From IMG/VR virus record IMGVR_UViG_3300011226_000006: a stretch of DNA of 11,225 nt; one strand, written 5' to 3'. The stretch is from a virus. Its lineage: Duplodnaviria > Heunggongvirae > Uroviricota > Caudoviricetes. A program made the position numbers and the translations under genes. Below, one piece after another: positions 1,030 through 9,389 of the stretch. The notes beneath the pieces are model-generated. The model was given only the letters and a program-made list of their open reading frames with translations, made no database searches and was not told where the DNA came from. How positions within the stretch are numbered: the first letter of the stretch is position 1; the number at the start of each line of letters is the position of its first letter.

Positions 1030-1536
1030 ATGCGACCAGATCAATTTTTCTATCCAGATACTTTTACCTTTAATTCATCCACCTATTATGGTCAACGTGA
1101 CTCATCTAAAGGTCGATTGTATATTCTTATTGAAAGTGACTTATGTCCATTTAATATCGGCGATATCATTGTGCAAAAAATGGTCGACAGGGAAAGACTA
1201 TTTGAAGTGCTTGATTACGAGGTACAAATTAGTCTCGAGGCTGGTTGCCCTGGCTACTCACATTTGGCGGTATTGATAGTGAAGGCATTGGATGTAAAAG
1301 AGAAGCCGAAGCAGATTACGACCCATTTGACGTTTAACGGTGCTATTAATGCTGGTGGTGATTTTCAAGCCGGTAATGACAATTCGATCACAAAGAATAT
1401 AACCATTCAACAACTACATGATGCTATAGAGCATTGCAATGATCCAGAGGTTAAAAGCCTTTGGCAAAAGATATTGGAAAATCCGACGTTTGCTTCAATT
1501 GCTTCAATATTGGCAAAAAGTGCTTTAGGACAGTAA
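1030..1536 (+). CDS. Hypothetical protein, 168 aa, no family recognised; low-GC single-gene insert between lysis and packaging modules
   Basis: Long uninterrupted ORF in a ~32-35% G+C region (hand counts on lines 1081 and 1381), preceded by an SD-like AGAGGG about 7 nt upstream of the ATG and followed by a clean intrinsic terminator. No signal peptide or transmembrane segment is apparent; the C-terminus looks amphipathic (SLWQKILENPTFASIASILAKSALGQ). Confidence 0.75.
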   Translation: MRPDQFFYPDTFTFNSSTYYGQRDSSKGRLYILIESDLCPFNIGDIIVQKMVDRERLFEVLDYEVQISLEAGCPGYSHLAVLIVKALDVKEKPKQITTHLTFNGAINAGGDFQAGNDNSITKNITIQQLHDAIEHCNDPEVKSLWQKILENPTFASIASILAKSALGQ

Positions 1537-1593: not shown

Positions 1594-1938
1594 ATGCCAC
1601 CACGAACTCCAAAAGCCTGCCGTGTTCGCGGGTGCCGCCGTACTGACCCGTCAGGTTATTGCGAAAGCCACAAAAGCGAAGGCTGGAAGCAATACAAGCC
1701 AGGACAATCCCGTCATCAGCGCGGCTACGGTTCGAAGTGGGACGTTATCCGCGCGCGTGTGCTGAAACGTGACAAAGGTTTATGTCAGTTATGTCTGCGC
1801 GCTGGTGTGGTGCGTGAGGCGAAAACTGTTGACCACATCATCCCTAAAGCGCATGGCGGCACTGATGCCGACTGTAATCTGCAGAGTCTGTGCTGGCCGT
1901 GTCATAAGGCGAAGACGGCCCGTGAACGGATTAAGTAA
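1594..1938 (+). CDS. HNH endonuclease, phage packaging-associated type
   Basis: 114 aa with paired Cys motifs and HNH core (CQLC...DHIIPKAHGG...NLQSLCWPCHKAK); positioned directly upstream of the terminase small subunit, as is typical for cos-type HK97-like phages. Confidence 0.9.
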   Translation: MPPRTPKACRVRGCRRTDPSGYCESHKSEGWKQYKPGQSRHQRGYGSKWDVIRARVLKRDKGLCQLCLRAGVVREAKTVDHIIPKAHGGTDADCNLQSLCWPCHKAKTARERIK

Positions 1939-1964
1939 GAACCAGTTCCCACTGCCAGAGGGGA

Positions 1965-2024
1965 GGGGCGGGTCAAATCCCTGTGACCTGACGTCTTCCG
2001 GACTGCCCGCCCCATCGTTTTTTT
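1965..2024 (+). repeat. GC-rich inverted repeat (ggggcggg ... cccgcccc) followed by a T7 run; candidate cos/packaging-site element or HNH terminator
   Basis: ggggcggg at 1965-1972 is the exact reverse complement of cccgcccc at 2006-2013 (33-nt spacer), followed by atcg and TTTTTTT (2018-2024). Lies in the HNH-TerS intergenic region. Confidence 0.3.
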
Positions 2025-2063
2025 ATACCCGCGAAAAATGAAATTTAACCAGGAGTGCCGCAT

Positions 2064-2558
2064 ATGGCTGGAACGGCGGGGCGTTCCGGGCGTCGCCCCA
2101 AGCCAACGGCGCGCAAGGCGCTGGCCGGAAACCCCGGCAAGCGAGCCCTGAATAAAGATGAACCTGTTTTTACGCCCATCAAAGGTGTTGAGCCACCGGA
2201 GTGGTTCGCTGAAGAAGATCTCCCTCTCGCCACGATCATGTGGCAACTGACAACCAAAGAACTCTGCGGTCAGGGCCTGCTGTGCGTGACTGACCTCGCG
2301 GTGCTTGAGCGGTGGTGCGTGGCCTACGAGTTCTGGCGACGTGCCGTGAAAAATATTGCCAGACAGGGCAACACCATCACCGGTGCAATGGGCGGTATGG
2401 TCAAAAATCCGGAGCTGACCGCCAAAAAAGAACAGGAGTCCGAGATGAGCAGTACGGGGTCAATGCTCGGACTCGACCCCAGCAGCCGCCAGCGTCTGAT
2501 TGGCCTGGCGGGGAAGAAGAAAGCCACTAACCCGTTTCTGAAAATTATCGAATCATGA
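2064..2558 (+). CDS. Terminase small subunit (P27-family-like)
   Basis: Translation [34 protein letters not shown]... has the Gly/Arg/Lys-rich N-terminus typical of P27-type small terminases. AGGAG at 2051-2055 is 8 nt before ATG 2064; the track start at 2055 is a GTG inside the SD and is less likely. Stop overlaps the TerL start (ATGA). Confidence 0.85.
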
Positions 2559-4225
2559 GCCGGAAATCTTACCCCAACGTAAATGCTGCAAATCAGTATG
2601 CCCGGGATGTCGTGCGCGGAAAGATTATTGCCTGCCAGTTTGTGATTCAGGCCTGCCAGCGCCATCTTGATGACCTGATGGCGGAAAAAAGTAAGTCGTT
2701 TCGTTACCGCTTCGACAAGGACCTGGCTGAACGGGCCGCCAAATTTATTCAGCTGTTGCCGCACACCAAGGGTGAGTGGGCATTTAAACGGATGCCCATC
2801 ACGCTGGAGCCGTGGCAGCTATTTGTGATCTGCTGTGCGTTTGGCTGGGTCAATAAAGGCACCCGGTTGCGCCGCTTCCGGGAGGTGTATACCGAAATTC
2901 CCCGTAAGAACGGCAAATCGGCAATCTCTGCCGGTGTTGCCCTGTATTGTTTTGCCTGTGATAACGAGTTCGGCGCGGAAGTGTATTCCGGTGCCACGAC
3001 GGAGAAACAGGCGTGGGAAGTCTTTCGTCCGGCACGACTGATGTGTAAACGCACACCCATGCTGACGGAAGCGTTCGGGATTGAGGTTAACGCCTCAAAC
3101 ATGAACCGTCCGGAGGATGGTGCGCGGTTTGAACCGCTGATCGGTAACCCCGGTGATGGTTCATCACCCCACTGTGCCGTGGTGGATGAATATCACGAGC
3201 ACGCCACAGATGCGCTTTACACCACGATGCTTACCGGGATGGGGGCGCGACGCCAGCCACTGATGTGGGCCATTACCACCGCCGGGTACAACATTGAGGG
3301 GCCGTGCTACGACAAACGGCGGGAAGTCATCGAGATGCTCAACGGCTCGGTGCCAAACGATGAACTGTTCGGGATCATCTATACCGTTGATGAAGGTGAC
3401 GACTGGACCGACCCGCAGGTGCTGGAAAAAGCCAATCCAAATATTGGCGTGTCGGTTTATCGCGAATTTTTGTTAAGTCAGCAGCAGCGTGCGAAAAATA
3501 ACGCCCGTCTGGCAAACGTCTTTAAAACAAAACACCTCAATATCTGGGTGTCGGCGCGTTCGGCGTATTTCAACCTGGTGAGCTGGCAGAGCTGCGAGGA
3601 TAAATCACTGACCCTTGAGCAGTTCGAGGGGCAGCCGTGGATTCTGGCCTTTGACCTGGCGCGTAAGCTGGATATGAACAGCATGGCGCGACTTTATACC
3701 CGCGAGATTGACGGTAAAACGCATTACTACAGTGTGGCCCCGCGTTTCTGGGTACCGTATGACACGGTGTACAGCGTCGAGAAAAATGAAGATCGCCGGA
3801 CAGCCGAACGCTTTCAGAAATGGGTGGAAATGGGCGTTCTGACTGTTACCGCTGGTGCGGAGGTGGATTATCGCTACATCCTCGAGGAGGCCAAAGCGGC
3901 GAACAAAATCAGCCCGGTCAGTGAGTCACCCATCGACCCCTTCGGGGCGACCGGGCTGTCGCATGACCTTGCTGATGAAGACCTGAACCCCATCACCATC
4001 ATTCAGAACTACACCAACATGTCCGATCCGATGAAAGAGCTGGAAGCGGCGATTGAATCGGGGCGCTTTCATCATGACGGCAATCCCATCATGACCTGGT
4101 GTATCGGCAACGTGGTCGGCAAAACCATTCCGGGTAACGATGATGTGGTGAAGCCTGTCAAGGAGCAGGCGGAAAACAAAATCGATGGTGCGGTNNNNNN
4201 NNNNGATGCTCTCTTAATTCTATGA
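2555..4225 (+). CDS. Terminase large subunit; C-terminus interrupted by an N-run
   Basis: 556-aa ORF with the ATPase-region signature ([21 protein letters not shown]..., VVDEYHEH...) and a nuclease-region C-terminal half. The last codons cross the 10-N run at 4195-4204, so the exact stop is uncertain: 4223-4225 as tracked, or 4215-4217 if the gap length is off by one like the others. Confidence 0.9.
4195..4204. other. Run of 10 N (assembly gap or masked bases) inside the terminase large-subunit 3' end
   Basis: Literal n characters in the sequence. Confidence 0.95.
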
Positions 4226-4383
4226 AATCACTAATTGCTGATGTTATCGGGCTGGCTGGTTTTGGCCTGCTTACGTGCGGGTTTTACCTGCAGTTTGGTA
4301 TGGCTCCGGCTCTGATGCTGTCCGGCGGTTTACTGCTGGTGGGCGCACTGGCTATGGCCAGAAGGGGGACGCGTGCTGCTTGA
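4222..4383 (+). CDS. Small predicted membrane protein (53 aa, two hydrophobic helices); not in the ORF track
   Basis: ATG 4222 to TGA 4381-4383 translates [56 protein letters not shown] overlaps the tracked terminase stop (tATGA) and the 3' end overlaps the portal GTG start by 11 nt. No SD of its own, so translation would rely on coupling. Confidence 0.4.
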   Translation: MKSLIADVIGLAGFGLLTCGFYLQFGMAPALMLSGGLLLVGALAMARRGTRAA

Positions 4384-5599
4384 TGCTCTGTTCAGAAGTA
4401 AATCACTGGAGAATCCTTCCACCCCGATAACCGGGGATGCCGTTGATACTGATGGGCTGTTCCGGGCAGACGTTTATGTCAGTCCTGAAACTGCGATGAA
4501 ACTGGCTGCGGTGTATTCCTGTATCTATGTCCTGTCTTCCAGCCTTGCCCAGATGCCGTTGCATGTTATGCGCAGGCACAATGGGAAGGTTGAGCCCGCA
4601 CGCGATCATCCGGCGTTTTATCTGGTTCATGATGAGCCCAATACCTGGCAAACCAGTTACAAATGGCGCGAACTGAAGCAACGTCACATCCTTGGCTGGG
4701 GGAATGGGTATACCTGGGTGAAACGTAATCGTCGCGGTGAAGTCATATCCCTGGATTGCTGTATGCCGTGGGAAACGACGTTGATGAATACTGGTGGCCG
4801 ATACACCTACGGTTTGTACAACGAATATGGGGCGTTTGCGATCAGCCCCGACGATATGATCCACATCCGTGCGCTGGGTAATAATCAGAAGATGGGGCTG
4901 AGTCCGATTATGCAACATGCCGAAACAATAGGCATGGGGATGAGCGGTCAGAAATACACAGAAAGCTTCTTCAGCGGTAATGCCCGTCCGGCGGGGATAG
5001 TATCCGTTAAAAGCGGACTCAATAAGGACAGCTGGGGCTGGCTTAAAGATCAGTGGCAGAAGGCATCGCAGGCGTTACGCAGCCAGGAAAACAAACCCAT
5101 GCTGCTGCCAGCCGATCTGGATTACAAGGCACTGACTGTGTCGCCAGTTGACGCTCAGATCATTGACATGATGAAACTGAACCGTTCAATGATTGCCGGT
5201 ATTTTCAATATTCCTGCGCACATGATTAATGACCTCGAAAAAGCCACCTTCTCCAATATTTCTGCGCAGGCGATTCAGTTTGTCCGCTACACGATGATGC
5301 CGTGGGTGACGAACTGGGAGCAGGAGCTTAACCGTCGCTTGTTTACCCGCGCTGAGTTAGCCGCCGGGTATTACGTCAGGTTCAATCTGACGGGGCTTTT
5401 ACGCGGAACTCCACAGGAGCGCGCGCAATTCTATCACTTCGCTATTACCGATGGATGGATGAGCCGTAATGAGGCCCGTGCATTCGAGGATATGAATCCG
5501 GTTGAAGGGCTAGATGAGATGCTGGTAAGCGTGAATGCTGCTAACCCGGCAGGAGATTTTAAGCCCCCAAAAAATGATGAGGGAAAAACCAATGAATGA
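4373..5599 (+). CDS. Portal protein (HK97 family)
   Basis: 408 aa, typical size and order (TerL -> portal -> protease -> capsid). GTG start at 4373 preceded by GGGGG at 4363-4367. No hydrophobic segments. Confidence 0.9.
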   Translation: MLLDALFRSKSLENPSTPITGDAVDTDGLFRADVYVSPETAMKLAAVYSCIYVLSSSLAQMPLHVMRRHNGKVEPARDHPAFYLVHDEPNTWQTSYKWRELKQRHILGWGNGYTWVKRNRRGEVISLDCCMPWETTLMNTGGRYTYGLYNEYGAFAISPDDMIHIRALGNNQKMGLSPIMQHAETIGMGMSGQKYTESFFSGNARPAGIVSVKSGLNKDSWGWLKDQWQKASQALRSQENKPMLLPADLDYKALTVSPVDAQIIDMMKLNRSMIAGIFNIPAHMINDLEKATFSNISAQAIQFVRYTMMPWVTNWEQELNRRLFTRAELAAGYYVRFNLTGLLRGTPQERAQFYHFAITDGWMSRNEARAFEDMNPVEGLDEMLVSVNAANPAGDFKPPKNDEGKTNE

Positions 5600-7522: not shown

Positions 7523-7850
7523 ATGCTGTTAAAAATGGAAGAGATTAAGCTTCAGCTCCGTCTGGATGATGANNNNNNNNNNNNNNNNNNNNNNNNNNNN
7601 NNNNNTGCTTGGTAAGGCCGCTCAGAGTCGTACGGAAAACTTCCTTAACCGTAAGTTGTATGCAACCGCAGATGACAGGCCTGCGGATGATCCTGATGGG
7701 CTTGTGATATCTGATGATGTGAAGCTGGCGCTTCTGCTACTTGTCAGCCATTTCTACGAAAACCGCTCAACGGTTACAGACGTTGAGAAAATGGAGTTGC
7801 CAATGAGTTTTAACTGGTTGGTTGCTCCTTATCGCCTTATACCACTATGA
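7523..7850 (+). CDS. Head-tail connector protein (gp6-like), interrupted by the N-run at 7573-7605
   Basis: ATG 7523 with AGGAGG 5 nt upstream translates MLLKMEEIKLQLRLDD..., then after the N-run ...LGKAAQSRTENFLNRKLYATADDRP...LLLLVSHFYENRSTVTDVEKMELP.... The frame changes by +1 across the gap. The track start at 7566 (MM...) is an artefact. Confidence 0.7.
7573..7605. other. Run of 33 N inside the connector gene
   Basis: Literal n characters. Confidence 0.95.
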
Positions 7851-8257
7851 AAATTCGTCAGGCGCAGACCAGCGCAACCTACATACTGCCGGACCCCGGC
7901 GAACTGAATAAACGCGTCCTGATCCGCCAGCGGGTGGATATGCCCGCGGATAACTTTGGCGTGGAGCCTCAATACCCGGTTACGTTCCGGACATGGGCGA
8001 AGGTTATCCAGACCAGTGCCACCACCTGGCAGGAAACCGCGCAGACAGGGGACGCCATCACCCATTACATCACCATTCGCTACCGCCGGGGGATCACCGC
8101 TGATTATGAGGTGGTCTGCGGTGACAGTGTGTACCGGGTGAAACGTCAGCGCGATCTGAACGGGGCGCGGCGCTTTCTGCTGCTGGAGTGTACGGAACTG
8201 GGCGAATTTACGCAGAGTCACGGAGGCAGCAATGGCGACTCCCTTTTTTCACGTTGA
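7847..8257 (+). CDS. Head-tail adaptor / head closure protein
   Basis: 136 aa; ATGA overlap with the connector stop. The pattern ...ITHYITIRYRRGITADYEVVCGDSVYRVKRQRDLNGARRFLLLECTE resembles head-tail joining proteins as I remember them. Confidence 0.75.
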   Translation: MKIRQAQTSATYILPDPGELNKRVLIRQRVDMPADNFGVEPQYPVTFRTWAKVIQTSATTWQETAQTGDAITHYITIRYRRGITADYEVVCGDSVYRVKRQRDLNGARRFLLLECTELGEFTQSHGGSNGDSLFSR

Positions 8258-8432
8258 TGTTCAGCAGCCCGCGGAGATGCGCTTTAACCGCGCCCGTGTC
8301 CGGCGGGCGTTTGTCACGATTGGGCAGCGTCATATGCGTGATGCCCGTCGGCTGGTGATGCGCCGTGCGCGGTCGGCACCGGGTGAAAATCCCGGTTATC
8401 AGACCGGACGTCTGGCTCGTTCGATTGGTTAG
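8232..8432 (+). CDS. HK97 gp10-like tail-completion protein, N-terminal part, ending at an in-frame TAG (probable disrupted gene)
   Basis: Strong SD GGAGG (8221-8225) 6 nt before ATG 8232. Translation ...RHMRDARRLVMRRARSAPGENPGYQTGRLARSIG stops at TAG 8430-8432 in the middle of what looks like the conserved gp10-family core. Confidence 0.6.
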   Translation: MATPFFHVDVQQPAEMRFNRARVRRAFVTIGQRHMRDARRLVMRRARSAPGENPGYQTGRLARSIG

Positions 8433-8738
8433 ATGGTGCCGAGAGCCAGTAAAAAGCGAGCCGGTTTTATGACACGCATTGCCCCTAACCAGCGCAACGG
8501 GAAGGGGAACCGGATGATCTCTGGTGACTTCTATCCGGCGTTTCTGTTTTTTGGTGTCCGGGGAGGAGCAAAACGTCGTCGTAGCCATCATCGTGGTGCA
8601 TCCGGTGGCAGCGGCTGGCGGCTGGCTCCACGTAATAACTTTATGGTGGAAACTCTTGAAAAGAACCGCAGCTGGACACGCTATTTTCTGGCGCGGGAAT
8701 TACGTAAATCACTGAAGCCGGAGCGACGACGCAGATGA
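8433..8738 (+). CDS. HK97 gp10-like tail-completion protein, C-terminal part (same frame, downstream of the TAG)
   Basis: Same reading frame as 8232-8432 and directly abutting the TAG. No SD precedes ATG 8433. Continues the family-like pattern (...DFYPAFLFFGVRGG...PRNNFMVETLEKNRSWTRYFLARELRK). Stop overlaps the next gene start (ATGA at 8735). Confidence 0.5.
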   Translation: MVPRASKKRAGFMTRIAPNQRNGKGNRMISGDFYPAFLFFGVRGGAKRRRSHHRGASGGSGWRLAPRNNFMVETLEKNRSWTRYFLARELRKSLKPERRRR

Positions 8739-9389
8739 AACTGACGCCTGTTATTGCTGCGCTGCGTGCCCGCTGCCCGTATTTTGAAAACCGGGTGGCA
8801 GGCGCGGCACAGTTCAAAAATCTGCCGGAGGTCGGAAAGCTGAGACTCCCGGCGGCGTATGTGGTACCGGGTGATGACTCTCCGGGAGAAAACAAAAGCC
8901 AGACCGACTACTGGCAGGAGCTGAAAGAGGGCTTCTCCGTGGTTGTCATACTGAGTAACGGGCGTGATGAGCGCGGTCAGTTTGCTTCGTATGATGTGGT
9001 GGACGATGTCCGGCAGATGCTCTTTAAGGCCCTGCTGGGCTGGAACCCGGAAGCGTGCGGTAACCCGATTACCTATGACGGCGGCACGCTGCTGGATCTG
9101 AATCGTCATGAGCTGATTTATCAGTTCGATTTTTCGGTCATCAGCGAGCTGACCGAAGACGATACCCGCCAGCAGGATGAGCTGAACAGTCTGGATGAAC
9201 TGCGAACGCTGGCGATTGATGTTGATTATTTCGATCCCGGTAACGGGCCTGACGGCGATATCGAACATCACACCGNNNNNNNNNNNNNNNNNNNNNNNNN
9301 NNNNNNNNNNNNNNNNNNNNNNNNNNNNNNNNNNNNNNNNNNNNNNNNNNNNNNNNNNNNATCACACCGAAATAACCCTTCCTTCCTGA
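8735..9389 (+). CDS. Mu-like tail-module protein (gp37-like, family unverified); 3' region crosses the 85-nt N-run
   Basis: ATG 8735 translates MKLTPVIAALRARCPYFENRVAGAAQFKNLPEVGKL...DGDIEHHT before the gap. After the gap the frame HTEITLPS-stop ends at 9387-9389. The 277-aa track ORF (8735-9568) is a gap-induced fusion with the next gene. Confidence 0.55.
9276..9360. other. Run of 85 N, flanked on both sides by the identical 9-mer atcacaccg
   Basis: Literal n characters; atcacaccg occurs at 9267-9275 and again at 9361-9369. Confidence 0.95.

Follow-up and report, generated by a model that had tools for sequence, protein, structure and literature searches.

A variable-slot cargo gene of an Escherichia coli prophage and its uncharacterised protein family: a marginally RHIM-like motif and a possible role in phage exclusion

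Lambdoid morons and satellite cargo genes, of which lambda bor, HK97 gp15 and the cargo of P4-like and phage-inducible chromosomal island (PICI) satellites are examples, provide one point of comparison for the gene described here, and amyloid-switched cell-death effectors provide another. The gene is a 168-aa open reading frame (ORF) with an ATG start at positions 1030-1536 (+ strand) of the IMG/VR virus record IMGVR_UViG_3300011226_000006, a stretch of 11,225 nucleotides from a member of the Caudoviricetes which is referred to in its entirety as the window. It behaves as a mobile cargo gene, and its product may be an exclusion or abortive-infection effector.

Two lines currently support amyloid signalling in anti-phage defence: the single experimentally studied pair, Bab/Agp of E. 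coli (2024 preprint), and Bell/NLR pairs predicted in filamentous bacteria. Bab/Agp is an experimentally established amyloid-switched cell-death effector system of an E. coli prophage defence island, in which the receptor Agp activates Bab, a small helical protein that combines a hydrophobic helix at one end with a BASS11 motif (bioRxiv 10.1101/2024.11.07.622273). A G-phi-Q-phi-G signature at the centre of the motif is common to RHIM, fungal PP and bacterial BASS3 (Dyrka et al., bioRxiv 10.1101/2020.01.06.895854).

The family to which the window protein belongs resembles these systems in several respects. With the RHIMs of RIPK1, RIPK3 and viral proteins it shares, in its consensus, a short Gly/Asn/Gln-rich segment, apparently disordered in the monomer, with a phi-Q-phi-G core and an asparagine at +3, and it is likewise carried by viruses, RHIM motifs occurring in viral proteins too. 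It differs in its bacterial and phage setting and in the placement of the motif, which is flanked by a beta-barrel on one side and a helical tail on the other within a 168-aa protein; furthermore, RHIM cores form amyloid in cell-death signalling, whereas here the likeness is one of sequence alone. With Bab/Agp it has in common the E. coli mobile-element or defence-hotspot setting and a small protein combining a candidate amyloid motif with a helical module and a terminal hydrophobic helix, and a signature of the BASS3 G-phi-Q-phi-G type is found in the family. The arrangement is mirrored, however, since in Bab the hydrophobic helix is N-terminal and the motif C-terminal, whereas here the motif precedes the helices. 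No sequence similarity of the family to Bell/Babybell domains was detectable. As in lambdoid morons, a single gene, AT-rich and equipped with a terminator of its own, is placed between conserved modules; it is variably present, and in related elements alternatives occupy the slot. In contrast to the characterised morons and defence proteins, the window protein has no sequence or fold kinship to any of them.

Cargo status and expression signals of the gene

The cassette at 827-1580 is a moron, a self-contained and horizontally exchanged accessory gene, in the variable slot between Rz1 and HNH of an e14/HK97-like E. coli prophage. The left border of the slot is formed by the spanin pair (301-826, + strand), comprising Rz at 301-693 and the overlapping Rz1/LysC at 512-826, and the right border by the HNH endonuclease gene (1594-1938, + strand), with which the packaging module starts. 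These borders follow from the ORFs and from L001, a prophage of E. coli SCU-482 with 98.9% identity, whose RefSeq annotation also provided the names of the neighbouring genes. Homology to related prophages ends at about 804-826 and restarts at about 1580-1594, and these breakpoints at both ends delimit a cassette of about 750 bp. The G+C content is 38.5% for the ORF (33.9% at third codon positions, GC3) and 36.5% for the insert 827-1593, compared with 47.9% for the left flank (1-826) and 55.3% for the right flank (1594-4225; GC3 of the TerL gene, 65%). The cassette is 10-17 points below its flanks, with the lowest 200-bp windows, at 800-1200, reaching 31-36%. The deviant composition and the homology breakpoints on both sides show that the gene was acquired horizontally.

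With regard to distribution, the cassette (segment 700-1700) is carried by 29 of 5,426 complete E. coli genomes; this query matched 861 genomes and the query 1-2560 matched 1,330, mostly through the flanking HNH and terminase genes. Other alleles of the slot contain a 107-aa gene of the GrlR regulator family in a related E. coli prophage (L018, 940-1260), a ClpP-like protease subunit gene together with a hypothetical gene on the opposite strand (L019, 352-1539), two hypothetical genes on the opposite strand (L021, 346-1351), or merely a 418-bp spacer (L020, 338-755). The Rz1-HNH slot is a cargo hotspot and may reward systematic mining. Among the hallmarks of a moron or mobile cargo, we thus found variable presence, deviant G+C, alternative and empty alleles and a terminator, whereas the independent promoter is only a candidate.

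The initial annotation had given the same ORF, strand and length, and its quoted translation agrees exactly with ours. It had also placed the gene between the spanins and the HNH/terminase genes, as the L001 annotation does, and had proposed horizontal acquisition, for which composition and breakpoints both speak. Its suggestion that cargo varies in this slot was borne out by the slot comparison, with GrlR-like, ClpP-like plus hypothetical, paired hypothetical and empty occupants, and conservation of the gene in all related phages, which it had named as an argument against a cargo role, is contradicted by the 29 carriers set against 861-1,330 flank matches. The G+C contrast it described is real, but its value of 32-35% fits only the lowest 200-bp windows, and its 50-65% for the flanks is somewhat high (48-55%).

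Conservation shows that ORF 1030-1536 is a genuine gene. A word-indexed search of 5.8 billion proteins yielded 21 clusters of relatives with 48-98% identity, all of about 168 aa and without frameshifts, among which 35 columns are invariant; the conservation across the family rules out the reading that this is not a real gene. Relative to the gene of phage vB_EcoM-689R6, five synonymous and three non-synonymous changes correspond to a dN/dS (ratio of non-synonymous to synonymous rates) of about 0.16, a value based on few sites. The AT-rich non-coding leader of the cassette (827-1029, + strand; 31-37% G+C) contains a Shine-Dalgarno sequence, AAGAGGG, which was read at 1017-1023, 6 nt 5' of the ATG, and a candidate extended -10 element, TGTGATAAT, which was spotted by eye at 931-939. 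Alignment of the leader failed both with the other alleles of the slot and with the sequences 5' of distant homologs, so that no conserved promoter is definable. At the other end, the cassette closes with an intrinsic-terminator-like hairpin and a T-rich tail (1543-1575, + strand; AAGCCCCAT-TCAAT-ATGGGGTTT). The hairpin itself (1543-1565) begins 7 nt 3' of the stop codon and consists of a 9-bp stem, after which the T-run follows. No Rfam families were found in the window.

The settings of the relatives are of several kinds. Three different lysis cassettes precede single-gene cargo members: that shared by the window, L001 and L002, and those of L006 and L008, further lambdoid prophages with other lysis genes in which a close relative is located 3' of the spanin genes. 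In E. coli (L017), Klebsiella (L023 and L003), Serratia (L004) and a metagenome (L024), members are found on the opposite strand beside a satellite or phage primase gene. The E. coli example is a full-length paralog, WP_001053662.1 (26% identical, E=2e-16), in strain SaT040 (NZ_CP014495.1 927165-946464). Its gene is located at 8779-9285 of the L017 locus on the opposite strand, with replication genes (primase, SSB) on one side and capsid, portal and terminase genes on the other, and an equivalent terminator hairpin lies directly 3' of its stop codon. L017 is a capsid-forming PICI-like satellite situated between clpS and cspD, with the order integrase, AlpA-type helix-turn-helix protein, Icd-like protein, D5 primase, SSB, capsid, protease, portal, connector, HNH, TerS and TerL. 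Part of the L017 query region, which includes the SSB gene, is matched by about 1,700 genomes, but only 41 genomes cover 80% or more of the query with the paralog included.

The Klebsiella satellite member is found in the same place as the L017 paralog, and a member with a different head adjoins a D5-type primase. In Serratia the family gene stands alone, on the opposite strand, with an SLT-domain protein gene on one side and a DUF927 primase gene on the other. Further members adjoin integrases (L012 and L025), in some cases lying directly after the integrase; the Photobacterium member (L012) is located in a small island that also encodes an integrase and an IS91-type transposase, and the L027 member is near a HigBA toxin-antitoxin pair. 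In six of the seven loci compared, the G+C of the member is 8-13 points below that of its flanks; the seventh is the Photobacterium locus, with 38.0% against 40.8%, where the flanking DNA is itself AT-rich. These contexts, the low G+C and the terminator are together the signature of an accessory gene moving among mobile elements. As for the 106-kb record of Klebsiella phage P12620-1 (L003, PQ569648.1), the member at 4497-5009 is next to a 711-aa gene. Since a 711-aa DUF927 primase is found at the equivalent position in the satellite-like element L023 of K. pneumoniae, part of this record may be satellite-derived or co-assembled.

The protein family, its conserved motif and the surrounding genes

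AlphaFold2 was run with 19 and then with 44 sequences and gave the same picture both times. The model comprises a six-stranded beta-barrel at residues 9-90 (1054-1299, + strand), with a predicted local distance difference test (pLDDT) value of about 88 rising to about 92, a segment below 50 at residues 95-122, and helices at residues 126-166 with values of 60-75. The barrel forms an exchangeable N-terminal head. It is followed by a conserved Gly/Asn/Gln-rich beta-motif at residues 98-125 (THLTFNGAINAGGDFQAGNDNSITKNIT; 1321-1404, + strand), whose core is F112-Q113-A114-G115-N116-D117-N118 (1363-1383, + strand), and by a C-terminal helical module (1405-1533, + strand) with three short predicted helices at 126-134, 139-149 and 152-166 and the tail NPTFASIASILAKSALGQ.

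Conservation is concentrated in the C-terminal half of this layout. Within the close clade it amounts to 3.65 bits per column in the motif and 3.93 in its core (residues 110-120), the highest value in the protein, compared with 3.07 in the barrel; in the alignment of 44 sequences, the whole C-terminal module reaches 2.1-2.6 bits and the barrel 1.64. Because its conservation exceeds that of the barrel, segment 98-125 is not a linker. The initial annotation had described a soluble-looking protein with a Gly/Asn-rich linker; the linker reading does not hold, as the segment and the helices that follow it are the best-conserved part of the protein, and the description overlooks both the motif and the hydrophobic C-terminal tail of most relatives.

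The motif was detected by regular expression in 51 of 62 non-giant representatives. It reads xNIGSxSGxQVQVGNxNxQxxNITxQxLVE in distant members and THLTFNGAINAGGDFQAGNDNSITKNITIQQL in the clade of the window protein; the alignments A3 and A4 of the family motif show no variation at Q113, G115 and N118. The order of the module is motif, helices with the pattern DPEAKxLLxxLLEN, and a hydrophobic or amphipathic tail, TVASIIGAGASALLGLL. In the VQVG clade and most relatives, the final 17 residues form a strongly hydrophobic, Gly/Ala-rich helix with a mean Kyte-Doolittle value of 1.5-2.2, with which the protein ends. Domains are shuffled within the family, the same C-terminal module being found on other N-terminal heads (P0066, P0070, P0073, P0077 and the 214-aa gene of L014) and with added N-terminal domains (P0028, P0039 and P0049). 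P0028, in which the barrel is present, and P0070, which is without it, have a helical N-domain in common, and the N-terminal extensions of P0039 and P0049 (250-252 aa) look winged-helix-like by eye. In P0003 (118 aa, E. coli), P0020 (123 aa) and P0021 (108 aa), the barrel is partly missing and the motif and tail are kept. These three, of which P0020 and P0021 come from sequencing-run and metagenome assemblies, may be pseudogenes, products of mis-called starts or head-less forms.

A full-length match to PHROG 5789, in which residues 1-168 cover positions 1-167 of the 168 in the profile (258.7 bits, E=5e-77), means that the window protein is not a strict orphan. The initial annotation, which had regarded it as an orphan of unrecognised family, put this too strongly, although PHROG 5789 carries no functional annotation. 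It was right in finding no structural, lysis, packaging or housekeeping family, none of which was matched by the window protein in the library and fold comparisons. An exhaustive HMMER profile search of 1.84 billion representatives gave 64 at E<=1e-3, most of 150-180 aa, and this wider family, with its VQVG clade and alternative heads, reaches well past PHROG 5789. Pfam, NCBIfam and PADLOC returned nothing meaningful for the window protein and 19 relatives, the sole named fusion among the scanned relatives being that of P0072 (326 aa), in which barrel and degenerate motif are followed by a GNAT acetyltransferase at the C-terminus. This uncharacterised family behaves as cargo in a quite ordinary way.

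Several apparent relationships were discarded. Two giant adhesins, P0025 (E=8.6e-25) and P0065 (E=3.4e-5), are artefacts in which 35 repeat matches of about 0-5 bits each were summed. Membership among PilZ cyclic di-GMP receptor domains, judged by a Pfam PilZ match and the RxxxR and (D/N)xSxxG motifs, was rejected. A PDB sequence search with the whole-family profile retrieved only designed helical proteins as noise, and a database search with the C-terminal module retrieved mostly fragments.

With regard to the likeness to RHIM, Q113, G115 and N118 align with the corresponding residues of the RHIM core (I/V)Q(I/V)GxxN, and the tetrads of the wider family are VQVG, VQIG and IQLG, followed by N-x-N. 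A motif-only profile, A4 (24 sequences, 32 columns), was searched against 177,635 distinct PDB sequences. Six of its eight matches at E<=10 were RHIM fibril chains, namely RIPK1 (8ib0/9m6m) and RIPK3 (7dac/6jpd/12kl/7da4; E=1.2-1.8), and the alignment lands on the fibril core (sGeqvQVGNnNsqtv against NSSGIQIGNHNYMDV). As two column-shuffled controls of A4 gave no PDB matches, the signal depends on residue order and is not compositional. The family consensus thus appears RHIM-like, at marginal significance. The window protein carries a derived F-Q-A-G version that retains the three invariant positions only.

As for possible partners, no NLR or TPR (for example TPR-GreAB-PIN) receptor neighbours were found in any locus examined, and the database-wide motif search gave only six candidates. 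Membership in a BASS pair was rejected, as the motif was not found at the C-terminus of the effector together with the N-terminus of an adjacent receptor. A second copy of the motif was detected by a highly specific six-frame regular-expression search of all loci (408,422 residues) in L014 and L015 only, and the neighbouring protein there is no receptor but has the whole C-terminal module in common with the family member; no partner turned up in the E. coli, Serratia or Klebsiella loci. This metagenomic locus is the only one with two neighbouring motif carriers. In L014, at 7589-8998 (also in L015 and L016), a P0049-like gene of 250 aa appears to be split into ORFs of 125 and 115 aa by a frameshift or sequencing error and is followed after 6 nt by the 214-aa gene, which has an unrelated helical N-terminus and the same complete C-terminal module.

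The genes surrounding the cassette are arranged in the order GH19 endolysin, Rz/Rz1, cassette, HNH, TerS, TerL, portal, HK97 protease, capsid and contractile tail. According to the RefSeq annotation of L001, TerS (2055-2558) is of the P27 type and is followed by TerL (2555-4225). Rz1/LysC begins within Rz in another frame and extends 133 nt beyond the Rz stop, so that it is overlapped by Rz and not fully embedded in it. A 53-aa hydrophobic ORF at 4222-4383, between TerL and portal, corresponds to YmfR in the L001 annotation and is conserved along with the e14-like packaging module. The window also contains 138 masked bases (N) at about 4200, about 6600, 7570-7605 and 9270-9355. The resulting X runs fall in the C-terminus of TerL and in the capsid, head-tail connector and tail genes, and several ORF calls are artificially broken because of N runs inside them.

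Candidate functions of the encoded protein

We tentatively favour the view that the protein is an exclusion or abortive-infection effector, a view that we consider possible but short of probable; the initial annotation had already put forward an anti-phage or lysogenic-conversion role as a hypothesis. The host or the element would benefit from the cassette through phage exclusion or abortive infection. The N-terminal head would act as a sensor that responds to an infection cue, the motif would make the protein assemble, in a RHIM-like or amyloid-like manner, with further copies of itself into a higher-order oligomer, whose clustered C-terminal helices would act on the inner membrane. Expression in lysogens and an anti-phage phenotype would likewise belong to this model. 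It is a composite drawn from layout, conservation and analogy, and its directly established part is the cargo status alone. In a bolder form, which is unlikely, the family would represent an unrecognised class of single-polypeptide amyloid-switched immune effectors on enterobacterial prophages and satellites, in which an exchangeable head (beta-barrel, winged-helix-like or helical) is joined to a RHIM-like motif and a membrane-disrupting tail and no receptor is needed. The novelty lies in finding exchangeable heads combined with an internal RHIM-like motif and a minimal hydrophobic tail on prophages and satellites of common enterobacteria.

Several observations weigh against the effector model. 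The motif is internal, in contrast to the terminal motifs of Bab/Agp, Bell/NLR and the fungal pairs, and no motif-bearing partner was found within 6-12 kb of the family loci. The best match of profile A4, to RIPK1, is marginal (E=0.019-0.021), the Pfam RHIM model gave no match at E<=10 for the window protein and ten distant members, and a profile of the window clade, A6, retrieved no RHIM from the PDB. Low pLDDT, such as that of the motif, can reflect shallow alignments as well as disorder. The motif and tail of the window protein itself are the least canonical in the family: compared with the RHIM tetrad (I/V)-Q-(I/V/L/C)-G and its flanking Asn, its F-Q-A-G-N-D-N keeps the Q, G and N, but the two hydrophobic positions are atypical, and its last 18 residues are weakly hydrophobic (mean Kyte-Doolittle value 0.59). 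Given the F-Q-A-G core, the failure to retrieve RHIM and the weak tail, the window protein may have diverged from the role of the wider family. Moreover, the PADLOC-DB v2 defence-protein models gave no families at E<=10 for the window protein, and neither the RefSeq accessions nor PHROG 5789 are mentioned in any paper in the literature. Finally, a consensus sigma-70 scan found no promoter 5' of the ORF on the + strand, so the leader promoter is only inferred; the same scan gave none in the Serratia locus and a single minus-strand site in the PICI locus. As the gene is co-oriented with the late operon, its expression could be late only.

Part of this evidence would be met by a small, non-amyloid, membrane-associated factor of superinfection exclusion or lysogenic conversion, in which the motif would be an ordinary beta-strand element for oligomerisation or partner binding and the likeness to RHIM would be convergent or coincidental. 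The cargo and moron evidence fits such a factor equally well, the hydrophobic C-terminal tail of most relatives would suit a tail-anchored protein, and the likeness to RHIM is of marginal significance, is not seen for the window clade and finds no echo in the Pfam RHIM model. We rate such a factor only slightly below the effector model; it leaves unexplained why a 28-residue motif without monomer structure is better conserved than the folded head and why an order-dependent profile specifically retrieves RHIM fibril cores. The same RHIM-like motif, on a gene carried by phages and satellites, could alternatively serve as an anti-defence decoy that co-assembles with, and thereby blocks, a host abortive-infection system of the Bab/Agp amyloid-signalling type, a system of this kind being present in E. 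coli prophage hotspots. The herpesvirus RHIM proteins M45, ICP6 and VZV ORF20 are reported to block necroptosis in this manner; a viral precedent is thus available (PMC7375649, PMC8883498). A decoy is nevertheless quite unlikely: the BASS11 fragments IGSV, Q92 and D99-N100 map only imperfectly onto the motif, conservation extends beyond the motif to the entire C-terminal module including the hydrophobic tail, and members also occur in small chromosomal islands and near toxin-antitoxin genes. Furthermore, only three of 50,697 phage records contain a relative, with no evident virulent phage among them.

The position directly 3' of the spanins, in the same orientation as the late genes and found in three distinct lambdoid prophages (window/L001/L002, L006 and L008), could instead indicate a late-operon accessory tied to lysis or packaging, such as a lysis-timing or release factor, and the fact that no strong independent promoter was detected would be in keeping with this. 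From lambdoid biology and the Q gene present in L001, we infer that the window gene would be transcribed by Q-antiterminated late transcription in this prophage. Such an accessory is very improbable all the same, because most related prophages by far lack the gene and have an empty slot or unrelated genes in it, because the satellites and the Serratia phage have it on the opposite strand by the primase, away from lysis genes, and because it has its own terminator. A neck-like structural role hardly deserves consideration. A relationship of the barrel to a prophage head-closure protein was ruled out (hhalign probability 0.5%), and membership among head-tail stoppers or adaptors, judged by homology to connector proteins and conservation as a core structural gene, was rejected.

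Implications for amyloid signalling and prophage cargo

If the effector model is correct, amyloid logic would be more widespread and more modular in ordinary enterobacteria, such as E. coli, Klebsiella and Serratia, which would have received it via prophages and capsid-forming satellites. The proposed evolutionary link between bacterial and animal RHIMs would be strengthened, and in the bolder, unlikely form of the model the family would constitute a receptor-free, self-contained bacterial counterpart of the RHIM/HET-S type of cell-death signalling. With 168 aa and about 750 bp, it would also provide a very small system in which to study how templated assembly is coupled to an effector. Even if the motif proves to be non-amyloid, the analysis defines a cargo family that is uncharacterised and two slots in which cargo recurs, one between Rz1 and HNH in e14/HK97-like prophages and one adjoining the primase in satellites, and both are places in which to seek genes of the conflict between phages and their hosts.

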